Assembly (NCBI GenBank): GCA_963833125.1
Contig: CAWHWX010000025.1
Coordinates: forward strand, 1 to 23,133
DNA: 23,133 nucleotides
From: Candidatus Bathyarchaeota archaeon
Lineage (GTDB): Archaea; Thermoproteota; Bathyarchaeia; 40CM-2-53-6
Reading direction: 5' to 3'
Part shown: piece after piece, positions 3,524 to 17,410 of the stretch
Layout of the letters: each line of letters opens with the position of its first letter
Numbering within the stretch: the stretch's first letter is position 1
Program-made: the position numbers and the translations under genes
The notes under the pieces: model-generated
What the model saw: the letters and a program-made list of their open reading frames with translations, nothing else
Database searches by the model: none
Told to the model about the DNA's origin: nothing

Positions 3524-5035
3524 ATGCCCAAGCTTGCCGCAATCGATGTTGGTTCGAACGCGATGCGGCTCGCTATTGCGTCAGCTGATGATGATGGCCG
3601 AATTCACATAATCCAGACAGATCGCGAGGCTGTCCGCTTAGGTGAAGATGTATTCGCGAGTGGCGAGATATCCGATGCTCGCCTTGTTGAAGCGATGAAT
3701 GCGTTTCTCAAATTTCGGAAATTGATTAATCAGCATAATGTCAAGTCGGTGAGGGCAGTTGGGACCAGCGCGCTAAGGGAAGCTAGGAACCGAGAGTATT
3801 GCATTGGGCAAATTTCCAAGGTCACAGAGATAGCTATAGATGTAATCAGCCCAGAGGAGGAAGCTCGCCTAGTCTACGTAGCTGTATCAAGAACCCTTAG
3901 GCTTGAAGGAAAAGTTGCACTTCTCGTTGATGTTGGCGGCGGCAGCGTGGAGGTTAGCCTCGCAACGGAACGTGAGATAATTGCTACTGAGAGCTTCGGG
4001 ATTGGTACTGTAAGGCTACTACAAATGCTCGACCACCGGAAACGCGGAGACAGAGTTTTCCGGCAACTTGCCCGCGAATACATCAACGTTTCCGGAACCC
4101 GACTCAGGAAGGAAATTGGCGAACACGCCATAGATCTCTGCATCGCGACGGGAGGCAATGTTGAATCACTCGGAGATCTTCGCGTGCAATTGTGTGACGC
4201 CGACAGCGACACTTCAATTTCATTGGATGAACTCGACTCGATTCTCAAACAATTGCAATCAAGGTCGTACGAAGAAAGGGTCAAAGATTTCGGGCTTCGA
4301 CCCGACAGAGCTGACGTCATCATCCCAGCCATAATAGTGCTCCAAATTGTGGCGAAGGAGGCGAAGATTCAAGAAATCGAGATTCCTCGGGTTGGGGTCA
4401 GAGAAGGACTACTCATCGACATGGCACGGGGTTTAGGCCGCGACTCGGGTCCACCTGATAGAATTCAGCTCGTCACGTCGGCGAGGCTTTTGGGAAGAAA
4501 ATATGATTATGAGGCCGAACATGCACAAACTGTTGCAAGATTTGCTGTTGCTCTGTTTGACGCGACCAAGAAACTCCACAGATTAGGTACGACCGAACGA
4601 ACTTTCCTTGAGGTCGCCGCACTCCTTCACGACATAGGATATTACATTGGGACGTACAATCACCACAAGAATTCGTGGTATCTCATCAACGCATCACCAC
4701 TAGTAGGAGTGGATGACTCCGATAAGGGAATCATCGCCCTAGTAACCCGTTACCACAGTCGTTCCTTCCCCAAGCCGAGTCACAAGGAGTTTATGGATCT
4801 ACCGCCGAAACGACGGAGGACTGTTGTAAAGTTGGCCAGTATTCTTCGATTAGCGGAGGCGCTGGATCGTGAACACTCCGGTAGAATCGAAAGTGTGAAG
4901 GTCACGGTGAGGAAGAAGAAGGTAATCTTGTTGCTTAAAGGCAAGGGAGACTTATTGCTTGAAAGGTGGGCGTTGAATTACGGGTCTCGCCTCTTCGAGA
5001 AGACCTACAAGAAGAAGATAGTGATCACGATATGA
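3524..5035 (+). CDS. ppx: Ppx/GppA exopolyphosphatase with C-terminal HD domain
   Basis: Motifs AAIDVGSN, AVGTSALREA, EEARL, DVGGGSVE, GTVRL, RADVI and GVREG, plus the HD motif ALLHDIG. 503 aa. Confidence 0.95.
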   Translation: MPKLAAIDVGSNAMRLAIASADDDGRIHIIQTDREAVRLGEDVFASGEISDARLVEAMNAFLKFRKLINQHNVKSVRAVGTSALREARNREYCIGQISKVTEIAIDVISPEEEARLVYVAVSRTLRLEGKVALLVDVGGGSVEVSLATEREIIATESFGIGTVRLLQMLDHRKRGDRVFRQLAREYINVSGTRLRKEIGEHAIDLCIATGGNVESLGDLRVQLCDADSDTSISLDELDSILKQLQSRSYEERVKDFGLRPDRADVIIPAIIVLQIVAKEAKIQEIEIPRVGVREGLLIDMARGLGRDSGPPDRIQLVTSARLLGRKYDYEAEHAQTVARFAVALFDATKKLHRLGTTERTFLEVAALLHDIGYYIGTYNHHKNSWYLINASPLVGVDDSDKGIIALVTRYHSRSFPKPSHKEFMDLPPKRRRTVVKLASILRLAEALDREHSGRIESVKVTVRKKKVILLLKGKGDLLLERWALNYGSRLFEKTYKKKIVITI

Positions 5036-6615
5036 GTTCGTCAGAGCAGAACCCTCTGCCCGGAAAACTAATCGCAGTAGAAGGTATTGACGGGTCGGGA
5101 AAATCCACTCAGATCTATCTTCTCCGCCGATGGCTTGAGTTAGAACGCTACAAGGTTATTTTCACCGAATGGAATTCATCATCTCTGGTCAAGAAGGCGA
5201 CACGGAAGGGAAAGAAGAAACGCCTTCTGACGCCAACGACATTTTCTCTGATCCATTGTACTGACTTTGCAGACAGGTATGAGAGACAAATTCTGCCGTT
5301 GTTACGAGCCGGCTACCTTGTACTTGCCGACCGCTACGTATACACGGCGTTCGTTCGTGATGTGGTTCGTGGATGCGATGCGGAATGGGTAAGGAATCTA
5401 TACAGTTTCGCCCGACACCCAGACGTCACATTCTTCTTTGATGTCCCATTGGAGACGGCTCTCTCGCGGATTCTAGAAGGCCGCCCGGAGTTGAAGTATC
5501 ATGAGGCCGGCATGGACCTCGATCTGTCCCCCGATCCCTATGAAAGCTTCCGAAGATTTCAAGGTATGCTGAACAACGAATACCACAACATCGCCACGAA
5601 GTACAACTTCATAGTAATAGATGCAAGCCGCCCCCCCGACGATCAGCAACAATCAGTCCGCGATTTTGTTAACCAGCGAATAGATCTATCAAAACATAAG
5701 GCGAAGGGACCACTGCCGTTTCCACCTGGACTCCTCGCGGCTCGCTTCCCGGAACAGAAGTTTAAGAGTGCTCTAGGAGAGGCGCCTCAAGGGAAACCGC
5801 TGCAAACCGTGGCTCCCGCTAATGATGTGCTGACATTAGCGGATGCTGGAGACGTGACATTTCCATTCCAGATTAATGGGTCTGAAAAGCATTTCTTTGG
5901 CAAAGGTCTTCCTAAAGTCAACCTCGCACAACTCAAGGGAAAACTGCTCGTCGTCGAAGGGTCAGATGGATCTGGAAGATCTACACAGATCGATCTATTG
6001 CACAAACATCTGGAAGTTCTCGGCTATCCGACAATAGACGTCGGTCTAAAACGGTCACGTCTCGTATCCGGGAGTTGCAGGAAGCTCTTCTGGGGAATAC
6101 GCTAAGCCCTGTGACAATGACCCTCTTTTATACGACCGACTTTGCGGATCAGCTCGAGAATAACATCCTTCCCGCCCTGAAGGCTGGTTTCATAGTCCTT
6201 GCTGACCGCTACATCTACACGTTGATGGCCCGTGAAGTCGTCCGGGGGATGAGTAGGGAGTGGGTTCAGAAAATGTACAGTATTGCCTTGGTTCCCGATG
6301 CTGTATTCTACCTCGCTGTCAGCCCCCGCATTCTCGCGGAACGCAACCTCATGAAGAGCGGATTGCTCGACTTCTGGGAATCGGGAATGGACATTCGCCG
6401 TTCGGGGGACATGTACCAATGCTTCGTCGATTATCAACGAAAAATGCGCAGCAGAATTCCAACGCATGGCCTTGGACTACAAATTCGAAACCATTAACGG
6501 AAACAGATCCCCCCTGGCTATACACCGAGAACTGAGATCCAAGGTCGAAAAAGTTCTTTCCAGATTACCCCCGATTGAGACTCATCACGATAAGGAGCCT
6601 GCACCCAGCAGTTGA
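5032..6615 (+). CDS. Tandem thymidylate-kinase-fold fusion protein (~527 aa), probable family-3 polyphosphate kinase; two compensating indels at ~6071 and ~6450
   Basis: Domain 1 has VEGIDGSGKST and VLADRY. Domain 2 has VEGSDGSGRST and VLADRY. The ATG overlaps the ppx stop (ATGA 5032-5035). Restoring a G in GGG 6070-72 and removing one base at ~6450 gives LVSGELQEA...KMRAEFQRMALDYKFETINGNRSPLAIHRELRSKV, ending at TGA 6615 which overlaps the next TTG. Confidence 0.8.
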
Positions 6616-8302
6616 AAAAAAGAAAGAGTTCGATAAGAAAGAAACAGGTCCCGCAAACTCGCAGAGCCCCGACGCCGCGCAGATTGAGCCGCTCAAGAAG
6701 AATATTGCAAAATAAATCCCTGGTGATAGGTAAATCGAGGAAAAGGCAACCCAAACCCGGACGCGTTCGACAAAAGCCCTCCAAAAAACCAAAACCCAAA
6801 CCAAGACTGAGACCAAAAACAACACAGAAACCGAAACCGGATTTGAAACCTGTAAGGCCTGTCGCTCTCAAGAAAGCCCCCAAACGCACAGTCGCTGTGA
6901 AGGCACTCATTCGACGAACGTCCGGCGGGGGTAGGGACGTCCTGAATTTCATTATTCTAGCCCTAGACAAGCGATGGAACGATTACCTAGCAAGTTTGAA
7001 GCGCTATCAGCAGCTAGCTTCGGTTAAGAATGTCCACGATCTCCGCGTTAGCATTAGACGCCTCACCACAACCATAGATTTGATCGATAGATTCAATCCG
7101 GATAACGTAGTCCGGCAGGCTCGCGTCAAACTCAAGGACCAACTCCAAGAGCTAAGTGTTCTTCGAGACGTTCACATCGAAATGGTTAGGATGCGTGGTT
7201 TTCTGAAAGAACTACCCGAGACGAAGGAGTTCTACGACGAGCTACGTGACAAGGAAACCAAGTATCTAAAGTCCGCCGATAAGATCCCCTGGAAATCGGA
7301 TAGAAGATTCATTGAGAACGCCGTCAACAGAGCTAGGATTAGACTCAACGCCGGCGCGCCACTACTACGACAGAGAATTCTCGCAGAATAGTTGACGCCG
7401 CGTTAGACGTTTCTTTTGATAACTTGAGCAAGAAACTCGAAGATGTTACGCCCGCGGATTATGCCTCGATTCATAGAGTCCGGCTTGCCTTCAAGCCACT
7501 GCGGTATACAATCGAAATGCTGCAGCCAGTGGTGGGACTGGATAGCCGGCAGCTTAGAACCGCCACACTTCTCGCCCGACTAATGGGACAAATTCAGGAT
7601 CTCGAGGTTCTCATGAAAGATCTAGTTGAGTTCAGATGGAAAAAAGGAAATGTGCCTGGTGCGGTAGTAGAGATATGGTTGGACCTCGAACGACGGAAAA
7701 TGGAAGCGACCCAACGCTTTCTAAGATCTATTCCAAAATTCGGTAACATCTGGAAGCCAGTTATTCATGAACAAACAGGCGCAGCATCCTCAGCTTCCAA
7801 GACAATATTCATTCTTCGGCATGGGATAGCTGTTACTCGTGGCGATGCAGCTTACCCGTTGGATTCGGATCGACCTCTAACCATGAAGGGTATGAAGAGG
7901 CTTCGTCGGATCGCCAAAGGCTTGCGTCACTTGAATGTTCAGTTTGACTTGATCCTGACGAGCCCGTATAGGCGAGCTTTGGAGACGGCGTTCGTCGTCG
8001 GGCGCGAGTACGGAGTGGGACAGATAATTCAAACCTCACAGGCGCTTAGACCCGAGGTACTTCCGGAGGAAGCCATCAGAGCAGTGCAAGAGAAATACTC
8101 GCCGTGCCGGCGCTTGCTCTTGGTGGGACACGAACCTCAGCTGAGTGCGTTGATCTCAACCTTGACAACGGGAAGCGCAAGCGCGAGGCCAGTGCTTAAG
8201 AAGGGAAGCGTTTGCAAGCTTCAAGTAGAGAAATTGCAAATGGGTAAGTGCGCAACCCTGATCTGGCTGCTCACTCCAAGGCAACTGATCAACATCGCCT
8301 AA
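6612..8302 (+). CDS. sixA: Fusion of a basic N-terminal tail, a CHAD (polyphosphate-binding) domain and a SixA-type phosphohistidine phosphatase (~563 aa); one missing base at ~7351
   Basis: CHAD repeats are VHDLRVSIRRL/LSVLRDVHI and IHRVRLAFKPLRY/MGQIQDLEV. SixA motifs are RHG, DSDRPLT, TSPYRRALETA, LVGHEP and LIWLLTP. Adding a C at 7351-52 joins ORFs 6612-7391 and 7424-8302. Confidence 0.85.
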
Positions 8303-8311
8303 GACCGACAC

Positions 8312-8470
8312 TCACAAAGACGAAAGGACAAGGCTCAGATTGAAGTAGAGCCCAGCAAGGCTCGCTGGAGCCAAAACTCCTTTGCTCATAACTGTGGCGA
8401 AACCCCAGCAGGCCGCGGCGAGCACAATGAAAACAAAGATTCGCAAATTCCGCAGTGGCTTCGCTCTCAT
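8312..8470 (-). pseudogene. 52-aa remnant resembling an internally deleted EamA/DMT transporter
   Basis: MRAKPLRNLRIFVFIVLAAACWGFATVMSKGVLAPASLAGLYFNLSLVLSSL. The first helix resembles EamA TM1 (LAAACWG..V.SK) and the second resembles the ASxAG..NL segment. Confidence 0.5.
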
Positions 8471-8512
8471 TAGACTGTTTATCTGGGGCTTGGTAGCGGA
8501 TGAGGAGTTTCC

Positions 8513-8905
8513 CTAACCTTTCTTGAGCAATTCCATGATTTTGTTCTGAATCTCGCTTGCTATCTTCCTGACTTCCTCAATCTTCTTTCCCTTCGGGTCT
8601 TCGATGTGCCAATCTACGAGCTTCTTCTCCATCTGTTCAACCATGGGCTTAGGGCAGACTTCTTGGACGGAGCAACCCATAGTCACAATTAGGTCTGCTT
8701 CATTGATCATTTCTTCCGTAAGCATCTTCGGTTTACCAGGAAGAGGGATGTTCTTCTCTTGCATTACTTGAACGACGGTTGGGTTCACTTTCTCGGCTGG
8801 GACGGTTCCTGCGCTCGTCGCTTCTATTCCGTACGCCCTGCCGAAGGCTTCAGCCATCTGGCTTCTTCCTGCATTTTCCACGCAGACAAACAATACTTTT
8901 TTTAT
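8513..8905 (-). CDS. arsC: Arsenate reductase, LMW-PTPase fold
   Basis: CVENAGRSQMAEA P-loop, SAGT, TMGC..VCP and DW.IEDPKG. The frame extends to (ATA)KKVLFVC at 8905, and the first standard start is TTG 8893. Confidence 0.88.
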   Translation of the reverse strand: MKKVLFVCVENAGRSQMAEAFGRAYGIEATSAGTVPAEKVNPTVVQVMQEKNIPLPGKPKMLTEEMINEADLIVTMGCSVQEVCPKPMVEQMEKKLVDWHIEDPKGKKIEEVRKIASEIQNKIMELLKKG

Positions 8906-9324
8906 GATATTGACACCCCCACCAACCCGAATCCTTTATCGATCAGGTTGTGGACTCGGGAGTTCGCTATCTTGTAGAACACCCACTTGCCGTTTCGTCT
9001 TGAACTGAGAACTCCAGATCTTTCCAGTATTCCTAGATGGTGTGACGTCGTGGGTTGTGTCAGCTCAAGAGCCGCCATAACCTCACATGAGCATAATTCT
9101 TCGTCAGCGATTATCTTGAGCATTCGGAGCCTAGTGGCGTCCCCGAGGGCGGCGAAGAAATCCTCCAGACGTCGGAAACTTCCTTCATCTTCGCTGATTC
9201 TGGATTTCAACTGATTGATGCGTTCAGTCGGGGTACAACTTGTATCCACTAGACCGAGATTCACTAGGCGTTTCACCCTAGCCTGAGCGATGGTTTGACT
9301 CAACTTAATCAACAAAGGAACCAT
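8902..9324 (-). CDS. arsR: ArsR/SmtB family metalloid-sensing repressor
   Basis: Motifs ALGDATRLRML, ELCSCE (helix-3 CxC site), QPTTSHHLGIL and RRNGKWVFY. The exact start is uncertain. Confidence 0.92.
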   Translation of the reverse strand: MVPLLIKLSQTIAQARVKRLVNLGLVDTSCTPTERINQLKSRISEDEGSFRRLEDFFAALGDATRLRMLKIIADEELCSCEVMAALELTQPTTSHHLGILERSGVLSSRRNGKWVFYKIANSRVHNLIDKGFGLVGVSIS

Positions 9325-9344
9325 ACATTAACATTCTTAAATGT
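9325..9344. promoter_or_regulatory. Putative ArsR operator overlapping a TATA-like box in the 44-nt divergent arsR/arsM spacer
   Basis: ACATT (9325-29 and 9331-35) pairs with AATGT (9340-44). TTAAAT at 9337-42 lies about 27 nt upstream of the arsM ATG. Confidence 0.45.
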
Positions 9345-9368
9345 GTTGCCTTGATATACTTGGTGTGA

Positions 9369-10112
9369 ATGAACGTGAGTCTAAGTGAAGAACAAATCAA
9401 AAATGCAGTTAGGGAAAGGTATAGTCGATTAGCCGTACTGAATCAGACTTGCTGCGGAAATGAGGCTGAAAATGTCTGCTGCGGCTCATCAACCAAAGAG
9501 GCGGATCTTCCAAGTGAGGCGTTGAGCGTCCTTGCGAGCTGCGGAAGTCCTCTGGCATATGTGCAGGTTCATGAAGGTGAGACCATTCTGGACTTGGGTA
9601 GCGGTGGAGGCATTGACGTTTTCCGCGCATCAAAATTAGTAGGCGACAAGGGCAGGGTGATCGGCCTTGACGCGACACCTGAGATGATCTTCAGGGCACG
9701 TGAAACCGCTAAGAAGTATGATTACAGAAATGTTGAGTTTCGGCTTGGAGAAATCGAGCACATGCCGATTGAAAGCGATTCGGTGGATTTGGTTATCAGC
9801 AATTGCGTGCTAACCCTAGTTCCTGATAAGGGATTGGCGTTCAACGAGATTTACCGTGTTCTCAAACCTGGCGGTGGCATTTCCATATCGGATATGGTTG
9901 CGACTCAAGAAGCTAAGAAAGTGATCAAACCAGAAGAATGGGCAGCTTGCATTGCAGGAGCGGTTACCTTCAACGAATACAGCAGCATCCTAGAAGAAGT
10001 AGGCTTCGTTAACATTCATGGATCGGATGAATCCAACCCAATAAACGAGGAAATGACTTCGAAAGGACTCGATGTAAAAAGCGTGACATGGAAGGCTAGG
10101 AAACCCCTCTGA
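9369..10112 (+). CDS. arsM: Arsenite S-adenosylmethionine methyltransferase
   Basis: Motifs VRERY, SCGSP, LDLGSGGGID, EFRLGEIEHMP, ISNCV, PDK, EIYRVLKPGG and WAACIAGA, with N-terminal CC pairs. Confidence 0.93.
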   Translation: MNVSLSEEQIKNAVRERYSRLAVLNQTCCGNEAENVCCGSSTKEADLPSEALSVLASCGSPLAYVQVHEGETILDLGSGGGIDVFRASKLVGDKGRVIGLDATPEMIFRARETAKKYDYRNVEFRLGEIEHMPIESDSVDLVISNCVLTLVPDKGLAFNEIYRVLKPGGGISISDMVATQEAKKVIKPEEWAACIAGAVTFNEYSSILEEVGFVNIHGSDESNPINEEMTSKGLDVKSVTWKARKPL

Positions 10113-10155
10113 ACAAGTGCCGCCAGAGCACTAAACAAGAAGAGATCGGAAAGCT

Positions 10156-11256
10156 TTGGCAAAACAGCTTTCGCTCCTCGACAGATTCCTTGCAGTATGG
10201 ATTTTCCTAGCGATGGCCATCGGAGTAGCCGCAGGAGCTGTTTTTCCGCAACTCCCGAAGCTTCTTGAAACATTCAGCGTCGGCACGATTTCGGTTCCAA
10301 TCGCGGTTGGATTGCTCTGGATGATGTACCCACCGCTAGCACGCGTGAAGTATGAAGAGCTTCCGAAGGTGAAGAAGGCTTGGAAGATGTTCAGCGTTTC
10401 CCTATTCCAGAACTGGCTCGTAGGGCCGTTCCTGATGTTCGGTCTTGCATGGTTATTCTTGCCCGATCTGCCCGAATATCGAATAGGAATAATTATCGTC
10501 GGATTAGCGAGGTGCATTGCCATGGTCCTAGTGTGGAACATGTTGGCGGGAGGGGATAGCGAGTATGCAGCGGTCCTTGTGGCGCTTAACTCGATCTTCC
10601 AGGTTGCATTATACTCGGTTTACGCGTGGTTCTTTGTTACGTTGCTCTCGTCTTGGGTCGCCCATGGGTCGGGCGTAACGGTTGCGATCTCCATCTGGGA
10701 CATTGCCAAAACCGTCTTCATCTACCTAGGCGTTCCATTTATCGCCGGAATGCTCACCAGGTACGCGTTGGTGCGGAAGAAGGGGAAGGAGTGGTATGAT
10801 GGAAAGTTTGTGGAAAAGTTGAGTCCGACAGCATTGATAGGGTTACTCTTCACGATTGTGGTGATGTTTTCGTTGAAAGGTGGGTATATTCTGGCGTTGC
10901 CATGGGATGTTGTAAGAATCGCGATACCCCTCGTCAGCTACTTTCTCATCATGTTCACACTCTCATTCGTCATGTCCAAGGCTTGGAGATTTTCCTATCC
11001 TGAGACTGCAACGTTATCGTTCACAGCGGCGAGCAATAATTTCGAGCTTGCAATAGCGGTGGCAGTCGGAGTGTTCGGAATAAACTCGGGCGAAGCCTTC
11101 GCCGCGGTGATCGGGCCGCTGTTCGAAGTTCCGGTTCTGATCAGTCTCGTGAGCGTGGCATTATGGGCGAAGAAACACTACTTCCGGGAGTCGCAGCTCG
11201 AGTTGGCAACAATCGATGCAAGATCGATGAAACAAACGATGCCTACCAAAGACTAG
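10156..11256 (+). CDS. acr3: ACR3 family arsenite efflux transporter
   Basis: Motifs [44 protein letters not shown] and [10 protein letters not shown]. Multi-pass membrane protein. Confidence 0.96.
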
Positions 11257-11424
11257 CGTAACGTGAATATCCTACGAAAACATGCACCAAACAGAGTTCG
11301 TCCTGGGGAGTAGAACTTAAGAGAATTCAGCTGACTCTAGTCTACGGCGGTTAGTTCAATTTTCACGGTAATTGACCCTGTGAATTGCTATCCCTACTTG
11401 ACCCTGGCAGTTCTGAGGAGAACA

Positions 11425-11526
11425 ATGATTGTGGAATTACATATAGCATCAGGAGAGAAATGCTGCACGCTAAACGATGATGTGGTCAATTTGCTACGTG
11501 GGTTTGAGCAGACACCTGCGTCTTAA
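11425..11526 (+). CDS. Possible 33-aa peptide with a vicinal Cys pair
   Basis: GAGGAG lies just upstream of the ATG. Translation is MIVELHIASGEKCCTLNDDVVNLLRGFEQTPAS. Confidence 0.2.
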   Translation: MIVELHIASGEKCCTLNDDVVNLLRGFEQTPAS

Positions 11527-11572
11527 GAAAACTATTGACCAGGCAAATCATGGAACTGGGAACAGGAGCGAA

Positions 11573-12418
11573 TCATATGGGGACGGTGGGTTTCAATCTT
11601 GACGCGGTTCGGACTATGATGTTCAGCCCCAAGACTATCATCAGTAGTATGAAGGCTGCCCCCCAAGCGAAAGCATGCGCGTTCGGGTACGGGGAAGTTC
11701 CGAAGTCAAAGATAAGCACGGTCATAGTGGCTGTAGGATCGAAAACAGTATTCATCATGAATTGGCCGCCGAGAGCGGTGAAGAGTAGGGGAGCGGTTTC
11801 CCCCATGATTCGAGCAACAGCCAGAGCGATGCCTGTAACAATTCCGCTCTTAGCGCTCGACACGAGGATGTAGAGGAGCGTCTTTGACCTCGATATTCCG
11901 AGGGCCAAACCACCTTCCTTGATAGCAGAGGGCACCAGCCTCAGGGACTCATGTGTCGATATCGCGACAATAGGTATCATCATGAAACTCAACGCAATTC
12001 CCCCGGCGATGGCTGAAAATCTGTGTAAGGTGGCCACAACCAAAACATACACAACGATCCCCGTCACAATGGACGGAACGCCCGTCAGAACCTCCGCAAT
12101 CAGCCTAACATTCTTTGCAACTCTACCGGGGTATTCGGATAGATACGCCCCAGCGAAGAGTCCTATGGGTACACCAATCATAGATGCTATTCCGACCACT
12201 ACCAAGCTACCCTCTAACGCATTCAATATGCCTCCGCCACTTCCGCCGATTGGAGGAGTAACCTGTGTGAAAAAGCCGAGATTCAGCACGCTATATCCTA
12301 GGGTCGCAGTTTCGTAGAGAATCGAGGCAAGTGGGATTATCGGAATTAGAAAAGCAAGTGTGGCTAGAACCGTAAATAACCTGTTGCTAAACCGTCGTCC
12401 ACTCAGGGATTTAAACAT
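11573..12418 (-). CDS. pstA: Phosphate ABC transporter permease PstA
   Basis: Motifs GGGILNALEGS, GVPSIVTG, EGGLALG, ARIMGETAPLLFT and AWGAA. Confidence 0.95.
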   Translation of the reverse strand: MFKSLSGRRFSNRLFTVLATLAFLIPIIPLASILYETATLGYSVLNLGFFTQVTPPIGGSGGGILNALEGSLVVVGIASMIGVPIGLFAGAYLSEYPGRVAKNVRLIAEVLTGVPSIVTGIVVYVLVVATLHRFSAIAGGIALSFMMIPIVAISTHESLRLVPSAIKEGGLALGISRSKTLLYILVSSAKSGIVTGIALAVARIMGETAPLLFTALGGQFMMNTVFDPTATMTVLIFDFGTSPYPNAHAFAWGAAFILLMIVLGLNIIVRTASRLKPTVPI

Positions 12419-13385
12419 CCGTTGAACTCCCGGGATGGAAACTTAGTCTAGAAATTAATACTCGCCCTACTAAATTCATTAGAAATGCGATCGCGAAAAG
12501 AATCAGACCGAGCTCGAATAGAGCAGCGAGGTAAATGTTGTTGCCTGCTACTTCTGTGAACTCATTGGCGATCACACTTGGAATGGTTTCTGCAGGAAGG
12601 AAGAGTGACGGGGTGATTCTTGCGACGTTGCCGATGACCATTATGACCGCCATGGTCTCTCCGATGGCTCTACCCATTGCTAGAACGATACCCGCAATTA
12701 TGCCCGTGCTGGCATAAGGAATGACGGCCATTCGAATTGTCTCTAACCTGGTTCCACCCAATGCGACGCAAGCCTCTCGCTGACTACGCGGGACCGCCGC
12801 GACAACTTCCCGCATAACTGCTGACGCATAAGGGGTGATCATGATCGCCAAAATGAGACCGGCGGTGAGCATTCCGAGTCCATTTGTTTCACCCGAGAAT
12901 ATTGGAATGAATCCAAGTGAGCCTATAAGTCCTGGATCTATGTAATCTCTCATGAAGGGAACGAGGAAGAATAATCCCCACAGTCCATACACTACGCTGG
13001 GCACGGCAGCAAGCAGTTCAACTAGAAAGATCGAAGGAAGTCGTAGTTTGCTAGGAGCTAACTCTGATTGAAATAGGGCAACACCCAAGCTTATTGGAAC
13101 CGCAAATAACAAGGCAATCAACGTCGTGACTATTGATCCATATATTGCGGGGAGTGCTCCCAAGATTGGAGTTCCACCGCTGGGAGGATTCGGAATCCAT
13201 AAGGTACCAGTCAAAAAGCTGAAGCCCAGGGCTTGAATAGAGTCTAAGCTTCCAGCGTAAAGAGAATACACGGTAAGAGCGGCGATGACTGGAATCGCAA
13301 CCGCTGCAACAATTAGGACAAAGTGCAAAAAATCGTGGTGCCGTGACCTTTGGCGGGCACGGCTTTTTTCAAGTTGCTTTTGCAT
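12411..13385 (-). CDS. pstC: Phosphate ABC transporter permease PstC
   Basis: Motifs ELLAAVPSVVYGLWG, REACVALG, GRAIGETMAVIMVIGN and IANEFTE. Confidence 0.95.
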   Translation of the reverse strand: MQKQLEKSRARQRSRHHDFLHFVLIVAAVAIPVIAALTVYSLYAGSLDSIQALGFSFLTGTLWIPNPPSGGTPILGALPAIYGSIVTTLIALLFAVPISLGVALFQSELAPSKLRLPSIFLVELLAAVPSVVYGLWGLFFLVPFMRDYIDPGLIGSLGFIPIFSGETNGLGMLTAGLILAIMITPYASAVMREVVAAVPRSQREACVALGGTRLETIRMAVIPYASTGIIAGIVLAMGRAIGETMAVIMVIGNVARITPSLFLPAETIPSVIANEFTEVAGNNIYLAALFELGLILFAIAFLMNLVGRVLISRLSFHPGSSTDV

Positions 13386-13401
13386 TATACGTCGCTGGCT
13401 T

Positions 13402-14688
13402 CTATCCGGTCAGGAGGACTGTGCCTTGATAGTTGAGAGTCATCAGTAATTGTTCGTCAGCTGCAACAACGTTTGCTGGGAGTGGTACGTAGTCCAATGG
13501 CATTGAATACTGCTGTCCATCGTGGATTGCCCACCAAAGGAAGTGTACTAGGGCTTGGGCCTTGGCGAGAGTTGTGCTAGGGTTTGCGGACAAGTCTTTG
13601 TAGACGAGTATGTAGGTGTAGGTTGAGATCGGATAGGATTGTGCTCCTGCAGCTTCTACTAGGTGTATTCTAAGATCGTTGGGGTTCGGCGTGCCCGTCG
13701 CGTTCTGAGCTGCGTAAAGGATTGTTTGTAGCGTTGGTACGATGAAATTGCCTGCTGGGTTCTTGACTGCGCCTACTCCGAGTTTGTTCTGGACCGCGTA
13801 GATAAGGTCAACATAGCCTAAGGCTCCGTTGGTGTTCGCAACCGTGCCCGCAACTCCCGAATTACCCTTTGAGCCAACGCCATAAGCCCCAAGCTTCGTA
13901 TCAACAGGCCAAGTCACTGAAGTGCTGTAACCAACCTGTGCTGCCCAGTTTGGGACGGCAACTGACAAGAAGTTCGTGAAGGCATATGTGGTTCCGCTGC
14001 CATCTGATCTATGCACGGCGGTGATGAAGCCGTTCGGTAATGCGACACCAGGATTGAGGGCCACGATGGCTGGGTCGTTCCATTTGACTATGTTTCCCAT
14101 GTAGATGTTAGCTATGACCTCTGGTGTGAAGTTCAGTGTGGCCGTGTTATTGACGCCCCATGCTTGCAAATTGTATGTAACGGCTACCCCACCAAGCGTC
14201 TCAGGGAAAAGAGTGATACCTGGCGCGGCCGCTAACTGTTGGTTATTTAAGGGAGCGTCGGAGGCACCAAAGTCGACTGTCTTTGCTGATATCTGTTGGA
14301 TTCCGCCGCCGCTACCAATGGGATTGTAGCTTATGGTAACTGCGGGGTATAGCTGGTTGTATGTGACCGTCCATTTCTGAAGTAATGGGGCGGGAAACGT
14401 GGCCCCCGCTCCAAGAAGCGAGACGGGCGTCGTTGGTTGGTATCCTGCTACAGAAGACGTTGCTGACGCCATAGAGGTTTCGGTCATGGTTGCTGAAGTC
14501 ATCACCGATGACGCTGACGACATCATCGACGATTCAGAAGACATTACTGATGTTGCTGACATGCTCTGAGATGTGCTACTGTTCATTGTCGTGAAGTAGT
14601 ATCCTCCTGCAACTGCCGCCAGTATGACGACAACAAGAGCTACTATTCCGACATTACGCTTGTTATTCTTGCTCGACATGCGAATCAT
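13402..14688 (-). CDS. pstS: Phosphate ABC transporter substrate-binding protein PstS, membrane-anchored with a Ser/Thr/Met-rich stalk (start could be 14679, 14688 or 14697)
   Basis: Motifs GAGATFPAP, GSGGG, DFGASD, HRSDGSGTT, GNSGVA and YPISTYTY, with an N-terminal hydrophobic helix. Confidence 0.96.
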   Translation of the reverse strand: MIRMSSKNNKRNVGIVALVVVILAAVAGGYYFTTMNSSTSQSMSATSVMSSESSMMSSASSVMTSATMTETSMASATSSVAGYQPTTPVSLLGAGATFPAPLLQKWTVTYNQLYPAVTISYNPIGSGGGIQQISAKTVDFGASDAPLNNQQLAAAPGITLFPETLGGVAVTYNLQAWGVNNTATLNFTPEVIANIYMGNIVKWNDPAIVALNPGVALPNGFITAVHRSDGSGTTYAFTNFLSVAVPNWAAQVGYSTSVTWPVDTKLGAYGVGSKGNSGVAGTVANTNGALGYVDLIYAVQNKLGVGAVKNPAGNFIVPTLQTILYAAQNATGTPNPNDLRIHLVEAAGAQSYPISTYTYILVYKDLSANPSTTLAKAQALVHFLWWAIHDGQQYSMPLDYVPLPANVVAADEQLLMTLNYQGTVLLTG

Positions 14689-14756
14689 CGAACGCACGTA
14701 GCGGCCTATTCTTATTTAGCGAAAACGCATTGTGAACATGTGTGTGCACCACGATC

Positions 14757-14771
14757 TATATGATTCATATA
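14757..14771. promoter_or_regulatory. Perfect 7-1-7 palindrome between divergent pstS and pstB
   Basis: TATATGA-T-TCATATA. Confidence 0.5.
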
Positions 14772-14823
14772 ACTCGTATTCAATTACTCAATCATCACAG
14801 TAATCGATGGTCGGTAACTAATC

Positions 14824-15654
14824 ATGACTTCAGAACTCTTAACGGAGTTGGGCAGTGCACAGGTAGCCGACAAGAGTGTTATTGATATGTCTAACTTAAA
14901 GGAAAAAATGCAGGTAGCCAGCCTCAGCGCTGGATTTGGCCGAAAAAAAGTCTTGGATGACATTTCAATATCGTTTAAGGAAAATACAGTCACGGCGATA
15001 ATCGGTCCCTCTGGGTGTGGGAAGTCCACATTCATCCGTTGCCTAAACAGAATGCATGAGGTCACACCAGATGCGTGGACCAACGGCCACATAATCCTGG
15101 ACGGCGACGACATTCTCGACCCCTCCATGGACCCCGTCGTAGTCCGACGAAGGATAGGGATGGTATTCCAAAAGCCAAACCCATTCCCAACCATGTCAAT
15201 ATACGATAACGTGGCGGCAGGCCTTCGACTGAACGGAGTTCGCAATCACAAGGTTATCGCTGAGAAGGTTGAAGAAAATCTCAGAAAATCTTTCCTTTGG
15301 GACGAGATCGGTGACAGGATCAAAGAATCCGGAACAAGCATTTCAGGTGGACAACAACAGAGACTATGCATCGCACGAACCTTGGCGGTTGAACCAGAAG
15401 TAATTCTCATGGACGAACCATGCTCAGCGCTCGATCCCATCGCAACTGCAAAGATCGAGGAACTCATAACTAAACTGAAGACCACCTACACAGTAATCGT
15501 TGTAACGCATAATATGCAACAGGCAGCACGCATCTCCGACCTTACTGGATTCCTGTACCTAGGCAGGCTCATCGAGTATGGACCGACGACGGAGATATTT
15601 CAGAATCCCCACAACGAACTCACGGAGCGCTACATCAGTGGAAAGTTCGGGTGA
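14824..15654 (+). CDS. pstB: Phosphate ABC transporter ATPase PstB
   Basis: Motifs [53 protein letters not shown] and YISGKFG. Confidence 0.97.
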
Positions 15655-15660
15655 AATTCA

Positions 15661-16287
15661 GTGCCGCGGCTCATGGATATGGGAGAAGAACGGCTCTCGA
15701 ATGCCATCGTGGACATGGCAAACCTAGCTCAAGACTCAGTAGTCAAGGCCATAGAAGCCTACGAGAAGGGGCAAAAAATCACCGACACAGCGCGTAAGAG
15801 GGCAGCTCAGCTCTCGCAGTTAAGCGCGGAAGTTGAGGAACTCGGCGTCGATCTCTTGGCGGGTTATCAACCAGTAGCCACAGATTTACGTTTCATTAAA
15901 TCCTGTCTTGAAATTGCTTATGGTTTTTCACGGTTCGGCAGATACGCCTTCGACATCGCACTAGTTCTAGAAACCTATGGAGACTTGTCTATTTGTGACA
16001 AATCAGTCGTTCACGACTTAAGTGAGAAAGTCACCGGCATGATCGAACGAAGTATCCAATCGTTCAGGACTCGCGACACGGAACTCGCTCGGTCATTACG
16101 AAAAGACGACGATGAGGTTGACAAAGTGTACTACAAGTACACCGCCGCGATGGCCACCGATAAGTCCGCATCAGTTCGATGCGCCCTCGCATCTACCTTG
16201 GTGTTACGGTATCTGGAGAGAATTGCTGATCACGCCTGTTACATCGGAGACTCCGTTGTCTACATTGTAACTGGATCGAAGGCCTGA
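15661..16287 (+). CDS. phoU: PhoU phosphate-signalling protein
   Basis: Motifs YQPVATDLR, DDDEVD and RYLERIADHA..I. It lies directly after pstB. Confidence 0.93.
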   Translation: MPRLMDMGEERLSNAIVDMANLAQDSVVKAIEAYEKGQKITDTARKRAAQLSQLSAEVEELGVDLLAGYQPVATDLRFIKSCLEIAYGFSRFGRYAFDIALVLETYGDLSICDKSVVHDLSEKVTGMIERSIQSFRTRDTELARSLRKDDDEVDKVYYKYTAAMATDKSASVRCALASTLVLRYLERIADHACYIGDSVVYIVTGSKA

Positions 16288-16291
16288 GACC

Positions 16292-17410
16292 ATGAAAGTG
16301 GATACACAGGATCCAAAGAAGGAGACAGAGGAAGAGCAATCTCAGCCTGAGGATCGGTATGTTCGACGGGTACAGGTCACGGGCCGCGGGTCCTACATAG
16401 TATCCCTGCCGAAACCTTGGGTCCAGGAAGCAGGGCTGAGAAAGGGCGGTAGGGTTGAATTTAGTAAGCAGGAAAATTGGGGCCTCACCCTTACACCATT
16501 CGGCAGCACGAAGTACGATGACGAACGCACCCGATGCGTCATGTCACTTAATTCCAATATTGACCCGGATGCTCTAACCAGAATGATCATCTCACTCTAC
16601 GTTGCTGGGTATTCGACGATTGAGATTAGGTCGAAGGCAGGAAACCTCTCATCTAAGATTCGAGACACGATTCGTGATGTTGCGAGAGGTAAGCTCGTGG
16701 GCACGGAGTTGGTTACTGAATCTGCCCAGAGCGCAACCCTGCAGGTGCTCTTAAGCTACCCTCAATTGCTCGTACCGGACGCTCTGAGAAGAATGCTTTC
16801 AATTCTAAACGCGATGCAACAAGATTCAATGCAGGCCCTTTCAAGACTGGACAAGGACTTAGCAAATCAGGTTGTCAAGATTGACGATGAGATCGACAGG
16901 TTCAGCCTGTACGTAATCAGGCAACTAAAATGGGCCGTAAAACACCCCACCCTACTCTCTAGAATCGGTTTATCCTCGCCCGTGGAATGCCTAGGATATA
17001 GGATCATCAGCAAGAGCGTTGAGCGTTCTGCAGATCATGCCGCAAGGATCGGAGTGAACGTACTTCTACTGCAGCAGGCACCTGGGGCATCGTTATTCAA
17101 GGACGCAAATGCGCTAAGCCAGCAATCGTCAAGAATGATGGAGACTTCGCTGCGAGCTTTGTTCGCCAGCGATTACAAACTTGCCGAAAGCGTGCTTTTT
17201 GAAGGGGCGAAAGTTACTGATCTCGAATCGAAACTGGTTGAGAGGTTACTTAAGGAGAAGATTCCAGCGGGCGACCTCTCCGCAATGCGCTTAATCTCGG
17301 AGAGCCTGAGAAGAATCGGCGAATATGCAACCGACGTTGCGGAAGTCGTCCTGAATTCAACTATTCAAAAAATGTTGGACCAATCGGACGGTATCGAGGC
17401 CCAGCCATAG
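16292..17410 (+). CDS. phoU: Archaeal phosphate uptake regulator (N-terminal AbrB/MazE DNA-binding domain plus PhoU repeats)
   Basis: RRVQVTGRGSYIVSLPKPWV is AbrB-like, followed by ISLYVAGY, DDEIDRF, ERSADHA and RRIGEYATDVAE. Confidence 0.9.
   Translation: MKVDTQDPKKETEEEQSQPEDRYVRRVQVTGRGSYIVSLPKPWVQEAGLRKGGRVEFSKQENWGLTLTPFGSTKYDDERTRCVMSLNSNIDPDALTRMIISLYVAGYSTIEIRSKAGNLSSKIRDTIRDVARGKLVGTELVTESAQSATLQVLLSYPQLLVPDALRRMLSILNAMQQDSMQALSRLDKDLANQVVKIDDEIDRFSLYVIRQLKWAVKHPTLLSRIGLSSPVECLGYRIISKSVERSADHAARIGVNVLLLQQAPGASLFKDANALSQQSSRMMETSLRALFASDYKLAESVLFEGAKVTDLESKLVERLLKEKIPAGDLSAMRLISESLRRIGEYATDVAEVVLNSTIQKMLDQSDGIEAQP

Follow-up and report, generated by a model that had tools for sequence, protein, structure and literature searches.

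Family-3 polyphosphate kinase (PPK3) was described between 2024 and 2026, and as far as the main texts of the PPK3 papers go, as a two-subunit enzyme only. In Sulfolobus acidocaldarius the enzyme (SaPPK3) consists of Saci_2019 (cPPK3) and Saci_2020 (rPPK3), whose genes lie beside ppx and whose products form an alpha2beta2 complex, according to the main account in PMC12995831. The same account states that Saci_2019 works as a polyphosphate kinase (PPK) and that Saci_0893 is the dTMP kinase, that dTMP-binding residues are not conserved in either the c or the r protein, that Saci_2020 is inactive alone, and, in its section 7, that the arginine of the DRX motif is replaced in rPPK3. Its main text mentions a single possible fusion of the two subunits and leaves assembly error open, and the main texts of the PPK3 papers contain no Bathyarchaeia, Alicyclobacillus, Verrucomicrobia or characterised fused PPK3. 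Here we describe a locus of a Candidatus Bathyarchaeota archaeon (assembly GCA_963833125.1, contig CAWHWX010000025.1, positions 1 to 23,133 of the forward strand; this whole stretch of 23,133 nucleotides is called the window below). Its ppk3 gene, at 5032-6615 on the plus strand, very probably encodes a single-chain PPK3 made of a c domain, a linker and an r domain, judging by homology. An earlier note, made from the letters alone, had proposed such a fusion. Its statement on a two-gene PPK3 beside ppx in S. acidocaldarius is borne out by the account cited above, and the two domains resembling thymidylate kinase (Tmk) that it saw are present with all three motifs that it quoted. The parts of the gene are as follows.

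5032-5715, plus strand: domain 1 of the fused PPK3, cPPK3-like and putatively catalytic, residues 1-228 (PF02223 7e-27; c clade); start codon ATG at 5032, Walker A motif GIDGSGKST at 5083-5109, basic patch KKATRKGKKKR at 5191-5223, DRY at 5329-5337
5716-5880, plus strand: interdomain linker, residues 229-283, predicted to be disordered; 8 prolines in 55 residues
5881-6615, plus strand: domain 2 of the fused PPK3, rPPK3-like (PF02223 4.6e-11 on the frame-3 piece; r clade); r-head motif KHFFGKGLP at 5887-5913, degenerate P-loop GSDGSGRST (Lys to Arg) at 5959-5985, DRY at 6204-6212 in frame 3; read in frame 1 to about 6068, in frame 3 over 6069-6449, and in frame 1 from 6451 to the stop codon at 6613-6615
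6068-6072, plus strand: frame break 1, one base missing in CCGCGG (window: CCGGG), seen in the DNA alignment with G019, G016, G022, C19 and C37
6450, plus strand: frame break 2, an additional base, GCGC[A]GCAG, which none of the five homologous sequences has and which a contig of public run X1 also lacks

Both domains have their best match in the Protein Data Bank (PDB) in st1543, the cPPK3 homologue of S. tokodaii (2plr/5h70), with 225 bits for domain 1 and 130 bits for domain 2 versus at most 57 for any Tmk structure. For the 93% identical protein of the related genome G019, the E-values are 6.9e-66 for domain 1 (2plr/5h70) and 1e-36 for domain 2 (2plr), and true Tmk follow at 1e-12 or weaker. 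The AlphaFold2 model of the G019 protein has two confident domains (mean predicted local distance difference test score, pLDDT, 82; predicted template modelling score, pTM, 0.80) joined by residues 229-283 at a pLDDT below 50, and its best PDB match in Foldseek is again 5h70 (TM-score 0.94, 1.7 Å, 51% identity). A FastTree phylogeny of 151 rows, namely 144 c and r rows and 7 true Tmk, separates the c and r sequences from Tmk at a support of 100. All first domains fall into the c clade (support 99, 63 rows), and all second domains fall into the r clade (support 99, 72 rows) together with the r subunits of Sulfolobaceae; the latter family, f36, was recognized by the c protein of locus L116, which reads as the 2plr sequence in a comparison by eye. 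The domains thus do not group with true Tmk, and the proposed fusion of a c/r pair agrees with both the clades and the structural matches.

In place of the two separate subunits of PPK3, c and r form one open reading frame (ORF) in G019 and G022, and one open frame crosses the junction in the window. The stop-free two-domain ORFs have 527 residues from an ATG in G019 and 526 residues in G022, whose protein is 77% identical to that of the window, and the junction is open in G016 too. The 90%-identity cluster of protein P0001 has 527-residue members from NCBI, JGI, ENA and Logan. A search of 5.8 billion proteins gave 483 at E <= 1e-10, the best 120 of which were examined; among the matches listed (120 clusters), 40 cover at least 80% of the query, and some matched proteins contain clear frameshift garbage (P0025, P0027, P0048, P0052, P0075). 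The c-r fusion in this soil-archaeal group is real.

The window copy itself is not one open frame, as the earlier note had read it. That reading stands from the ATG at 5032 through domain 1 and the proline-rich linker into the P-loop of domain 2, but frame 1 contains 8 internal stops, the first at 6103. The homology of domain 2 runs on in frame 3 over about 6069-6449, where ADRYIYT is found, and returns to frame 1 over about 6451-6612. Compared with five homologous sequences (C19 and C37 of the same assembly, and G019, G016 and G022), the window has lost a base at about 6069-6071 and gained one at 6450; the two indels compensate, and the net length of 1584 nucleotides is that of the 527-residue relatives. 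The two sister copies in the same assembly likewise carry deletions where the first break lies. All three ppk3 copies of the assembly (C25, C19, C37) are frame-broken at different places, G016 ppk3 carries a 1-base deletion of its own, and the public record of the window contig holds only a truncated product of 357 residues (P0132).

We have little doubt that both breaks are 1-base assembly errors, because a contig from a public run lacks the extra base, the shifted segment is under strong purifying selection, the assembly is rich in indels and the likewise broken CHAD-SixA gene next to ppk3 is intact in G022. The contig in question (179 nucleotides, public run X1) spans 6346-6525 with 0 mismatches and omits exactly base 6450. 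Read in its ancestral frame against G019, the out-of-frame segment differs at the three codon positions by 10/1/26, with a ratio of nonsynonymous to synonymous substitution rates (dN/dS) of 0.081; the corresponding ratios are 0.021 for domain 1 and 0.16 for 5719-5937, which covers the linker and the r-head motif. In the 23.9 kb of alignments among C25, C19 and C37 there are 112 indels, or about 1 per 210 bp, and 95 of these involve a single base. The most pronounced hotspot is CGCG (20 of its 226 occurrences, 9.3-fold the mean). This pattern suggests a systematic basecalling error of long reads, perhaps at a methylated motif. A methylation-type motif as the sole cause was rejected, CGCG being in the context of just 15 of the 112 indels, and so was programmed frameshifting or readthrough, since relatives have no frame change there and the stops between same-frame split pairs are mostly TAA. 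In the organism, ppk3 is most likely intact at 527 residues. The broken genes of this assembly would be largely indel artefacts, which advises caution with other apparently broken genes of the genome. As to the three copies, the window and C37 are syntenic copies, 90-93% identical, of part of the 232-kb contig C19 (C19:126974-139475), and may be co-binned strains or duplications; the estimated contamination is 7%.

The state of the second domain can be judged from a motif census of 129 c/r pairs, 110 of them from loci and 19 from fused proteins in databases. The Walker lysine is present in all 129 c sequences; its place in r is taken by Arg in 118 and by His in 6 (the Alicyclobacillus type), and Lys is found in 5. 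The DRX arginine is likewise present in 129/129 c sequences, and r has Arg in 115 and Gly in 14, all of the latter from Sulfolobaceae. K61 is invariant in c (129/129) and mostly lost in r, the lid residue K155 is almost invariant in c and Asp in most r, and the EWN motif is almost invariant in c and reads G[LI]K in r. Domain 1 of the window has kept K24, DRY and the basic residues K54-R64, as would a catalytic part. Domain 2 has (A)ELQEALLGNTL in place of KKATRKGKKKR, Asp in place of K155 and G[LI]K in place of EWN, so that the basic cleft is lost. It thereby shows the common r state: a P-loop arginine, a retained DRY and no basic patch. It reads ADRY (6201-6212), and the published loss of the DRX arginine is not seen in it. 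That loss seems to be specific to the lineage of Sulfolobaceae, and on the sequences compared here what marks r throughout the family is loss of the Walker lysine and not of the DRX arginine. Domain 2 also has, before its first strand, an r-head motif, [RK][FH][FY]G.G[IL]P, that is conserved in r subunits of split pairs from bacteria and of the f21 type. Neither of the two Sulfolobaceae r heads compared contains it, and in the AlphaFold2 model of the fused protein it is ordered.

What else could the gene be? A true thymidylate kinase in tandem form, or some other nucleotide kinase that is no PPK, is what its label suggests: public sources including NCBIfam name the fused protein dTMP kinase, and both PF02223 and TIGR00041 ("dTMP kinase"; 156 bits versus a cut-off of 83.25) match above their cut-offs. 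These models, however, do not tell PPK3 from Tmk, and we consider this identity extremely unlikely in view of the separation from canonical Tmk at a support of 100 in the tree, the 51% identity to the S. tokodaii cPPK3 homologue, an operon devoted to polyphosphate (polyP) and phosphate, the activities of Saci_2019 and Saci_0893 cited above, and a better Tmk match elsewhere in the genome, a canonical tmk at G000:C4:114712-115236 (PF02223 118.9 bits, open frame of 219 residues). PF03976, the family of PPK2, is not among the Pfam families matched by the fused protein; the PPK2 of the genome is a separate gene (G000:C16:411693-412370, 240 bits), and no PPK1 was found in the genome at its 88% completeness. 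It is harder still to credit that the fusion arose in assembly, by an indel near the c stop codon that joined two genes. The assembly is rich in indels, the split relatives are such that one indel or stop loss would merge them, as detailed below, and some lone fused database proteins stand beside near-identical split loci (for example P0021/L064). But four assemblies of different species (77-93% identity) have an open junction, fusions also occur in many independent metagenome proteins (67-96% identity), and the fused clade has a support of 99 in the c, r and concatenated trees.

The idea that the window copy is a true pseudogene, with frameshifts that are real in one strain and a working fused gene only in the sister genomes, draws on the 8 in-frame stops, the uncovered first break, the 357 residues of the public annotation and the presence of three diverged copies, one of which could be redundant. 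We judge it to be very improbable, as the otherwise identical X1 contig lacks base 6450, the shifted segment has a dN/dS of 0.08, 1-base indels occur throughout the coding DNA of all three copies, the adjoining CHAD-SixA gene is broken in the same way, and the two indels cancel exactly to the 527-residue length. Somewhat less remote, yet still improbable, is that both domains are competent in catalysis or ligand binding, with domain 2 as a second functional site, for example a sensor of nucleotides or polyP ends. The retention of the DRX arginine in 115 of 129 r sequences and, outside Sulfolobaceae, of R109, R113 and the lid residue R146 speaks for it, as do a P-loop arginine that appears selected (118/129) and not the product of random decay, and a dN/dS of 0.04-0.11 for domain 2. 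Against it, the Walker lysine is absent from 124/129 r sequences, other residues stand in place of the EWN motif, the basic patch and lid K155, and Saci_2020 alone is inactive in the published account, though it lacks the DRX arginine as well. The earlier note's suggestion that domain 2 may be non-catalytic rests on the Walker Lys to Arg change and the lost basic residues, because the DRX arginine is retained; in this respect domain 2 differs from Saci_2020.

Several observations weigh against an intact single-chain PPK3 with a non-catalytic second domain, which nevertheless remains our preferred reading. Domain 2 keeps R109 and R113 besides the DRX arginine, so that the published reason for the inactivity of rPPK3 does not apply to it. 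The X1 contig has a depth of only 4.1 and possibly stems from the window's own sample. Neither the first break (about 6069) nor the linker is covered by reads or contigs in the public runs; three such runs contain little of the window and nothing at high identity over 5228-6139, and X1 contains 15% of the sampled words. There is no intact ppk3 copy within this genome assembly, and with a PPK2 present, PPK3 is not the sole possible polyP kinase of the genome. Finally, as far as its main texts go, the PPK3 literature reports measured activity only for the PPK3 of S. acidocaldarius, and for no fused form.

Together, the homology to SaPPK3 suggests a model for the fused enzyme. Domain 1 would be the catalytic polyP:ADP phosphotransferase, and its reaction would be reversible, favouring ATP production from ADP and polyP. 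Domain 2 would be an activating and oligomerising partner and would not itself be catalytic, the disordered linker of some 55 residues would tie it to the c domain, and a (c-r)2 dimer would take the place of alpha2beta2. A homodimer prediction with two copies of residues 8-505 of the fused protein, made without controls, gave a score of 0.01, which carries no weight for or against binding. A variant of this model can be offered tentatively, as a possibility that we consider rather unlikely: the r half outside Sulfolobaceae may be no dead scaffold but a second ligand site, for nucleotide or the end of the polyP chain, that sets direction or processivity. This half keeps every catalytic arginine, and where the Walker lysine would stand it carries an Arg or His under strict selection; repeated fusion would then fix a 1:1 two-site machine.

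The fused state is rare among the loci. The 112 loci comprise 107 split pairs, 3 fused genes (G019, G022 and L035, from a bacterial metagenome-assembled genome) and 2 that are incomplete; G016, a fused-type gene broken by its own deletion, is counted among the 107. The order is c then r in all split loci. Of 106 of them, 36 have a 4-nucleotide overlap between the c stop and the r start, and 34 have both genes in one frame. Because c and r overlap or share a frame, a stop loss or small indel would be enough to fuse them, and by comparison with the split pairs the linker is made of the former c tail (RIDL..K) and the former r head or N-terminal extension. In a concatenated c+r tree of 72 pairs (IQ-TREE quick search, with support from the Shimodaira-Hasegawa-like approximate likelihood ratio test only), the fused state needs 9 changes, and at least 7 are required by branches supported at 95% or more. 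Robust fused clades are the window type (8 rows, support 99) and the Alicyclobacillus type (6 rows, support 100), which includes isolates with complete genomes. Where a lone fused protein stands beside a near-identical split locus, it may be an artefact. Family f21 seemed to offer fusions with long open frames (G220, G371, G395), but these were rejected; c and r are in the same frame there with a stop codon between them. On the tree, fusion is a minority but recurrent state that has arisen several times.

A comparison of 41 related genomes gave matches at PPK3 level in 5 of 23 of the genus, in neither of the 2 others of the family and in none of 16 of the order. Four of the five are fused and the fifth, G009, has a diverged split pair. 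This pair (L005, G009:C234:575-2970) is GC-rich, 59% and 44% identical, and has ppx downstream and not upstream; it represents either a second acquisition or a contaminant contig. In a sample of 401 genomes of the phylum, 29 have a match: 14 of 15 Sulfolobaceae, 12 of 56 of family f21, both of family f65, and the genome of the window (G000). A protein at least 90% identical (P0124) is labelled Candidatus Bathyarchaeia, and one relative (P0141) is labelled bacterial, Acidoferrales. The fused archaeal clade is probably one soil genus of Bathyarchaeia. The distance between ppk3 and an archaeal L19e gene is about 29 kb on G000:C19 and about 34 kb on G016:C2, and with this gene so near in two assemblies, an origin of the contig from bacterial contamination was rejected. 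The window-type clade is nested in a clade of bacterial split pairs from Ignavibacteria, Terriglobia, Chloroflexota and FCPU426 (support 99), and in the concatenated tree it stands apart from both other archaeal clades. The gene was apparently acquired by a separate transfer from bacteria, with the fusion on the stem; the direction from bacteria to archaea is inferred.

The surroundings of ppk3 fit a PPK3 operon, with ppx, CHAD, SixA and pst genes nearby. The neighbouring features of the window are listed here.

3524-5035, plus strand: ppx, exopolyphosphatase (Ppx/GppA and HD domain), 503 residues; Pfam PF02541 2.6e-49, PF21447 7.8e-28, PF01966 1.6e-5
6612-8302, plus strand: CHAD-SixA fusion gene whose N-terminal tail is strongly basic and rich in Lys/Pro, frame-broken at about 7350; Pfam CHAD halves on two ORFs, and His_Phos_1
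11573-17410, mixed strands: phosphate uptake and regulation block; Pfam BPD_transp_1, PBP_like_2, ABC_tran, PhoU and MazE_antitoxin
11573-13385, minus strand: pst permeases (Pfam; 11573-12418 named by position only)
13402-14697, minus strand: pstS (Pfam)
14824-15654: pstB (Pfam)
15661-16287 and 16292-17410: phoU-type ORFs (15661-16287 named by position only)

The ppx stop overlaps the ppk3 start (ATGA), and the TTG start of CHAD-SixA overlaps the ppk3 stop, each by 4 nucleotides, and ppk3 would be the middle gene of a translationally coupled operon of ppx, ppk3 and CHAD-SixA that adjoins pst/phoU. The gene 3' of ppk3 is thus also a fusion, of a very basic Lys/Pro-rich tail, CHAD and a SixA-type phosphohistidine phosphatase; in G022 it is a single ORF of 563 residues (L131:161-1852; TIGR00249 sixA 78.8 bits versus a cut-off of 74.5). 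The 3.3 kb inserted between the polyP operon and the pst genes (8303-11564) are missing from the C19 and C37 copies and encode an S-adenosylmethionine methyltransferase (9369-10112) and an SBF/ACR3-like transporter (10156-11256). The product of 16292-17410 combines a PhoU domain with a DNA-binding domain of the AbrB/MazE type at its N terminus, and may be a phosphate-responsive regulator of the island. At the other end of the window, residues 322-512 of a 513-residue ORF (154-1695) match no more than a portion of the pyruvate kinase barrel (profile 70-247); the gene may be another with a damaged frame, or carry an unusual extension at its N terminus.

As judged from genomes, the fused PPK3 is a real, recurrent and undescribed architectural variant of a known enzyme family. 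It is not unique to the window; it is already in public databases, which still label these proteins dTMP kinase. The fusion provides independent genomic evidence for c and r acting 1:1, and as a natural construct in one chain it would serve biochemistry, structural work on the c-r interface and the regeneration of ATP driven by polyP. The census amounts to a correction of the rPPK3 hallmark, from loss of the DRX arginine to loss of the Walker lysine, and the range of PPK3 is extended to what is probably a bathyarchaeal soil genus, apparently by transfer from bacteria.

Among the known systems, two-domain class II PPK2 (P. aeruginosa PA3455) resembles the fused PPK3 in carrying one inactive and one active P-loop kinase domain per chain, but belongs to another family, and its inactive domain is the N-terminal one, so that the order is reversed (as given in the main account of PMC12995831). 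The "dTMP kinase" found in Alicyclobacillus tolerans and its relatives (WP_072874994.1, 459 residues), known from cultured isolates with complete genomes, is a c-r single chain as well. It is an independent fusion, in a separate clade with a support of 100 and at 44-47% identity to the window type, and differs by its domain-2 P-loop GSDYSGH, with His and not Arg, and by a shorter linker. The split c-r pairs of Verrucomicrobiota, Chloroflexota, Acidobacteriota and Nitrososphaeria-type archaea share the motif states of the window type, including the Walker Lys to Arg change and the DRY of r, but consist of two translationally coupled genes, whereas the window type has no boundary and a longer linker. 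Bacterial split pairs are its closest relatives, and its lineage is nearer to them than to the archaeal pairs of Sulfolobaceae or Nitrososphaeria type. With SaPPK3 and st1543 the locus shares the family, the gene order (ppx, c, r) and the CHAD, SixA and pst neighbours; domain 1, at 51% identity to st1543, has kept the P-loop lysine, the DRX arginine and the basic residues, and domain 2 belongs to the r clade. It differs from SaPPK3 in having one polypeptide where there are two, in its r-head motif, absent from both Sulfolobaceae r heads compared, and in a second domain that keeps the DRX arginine where all 14 Sulfolobaceae r sequences have glycine.

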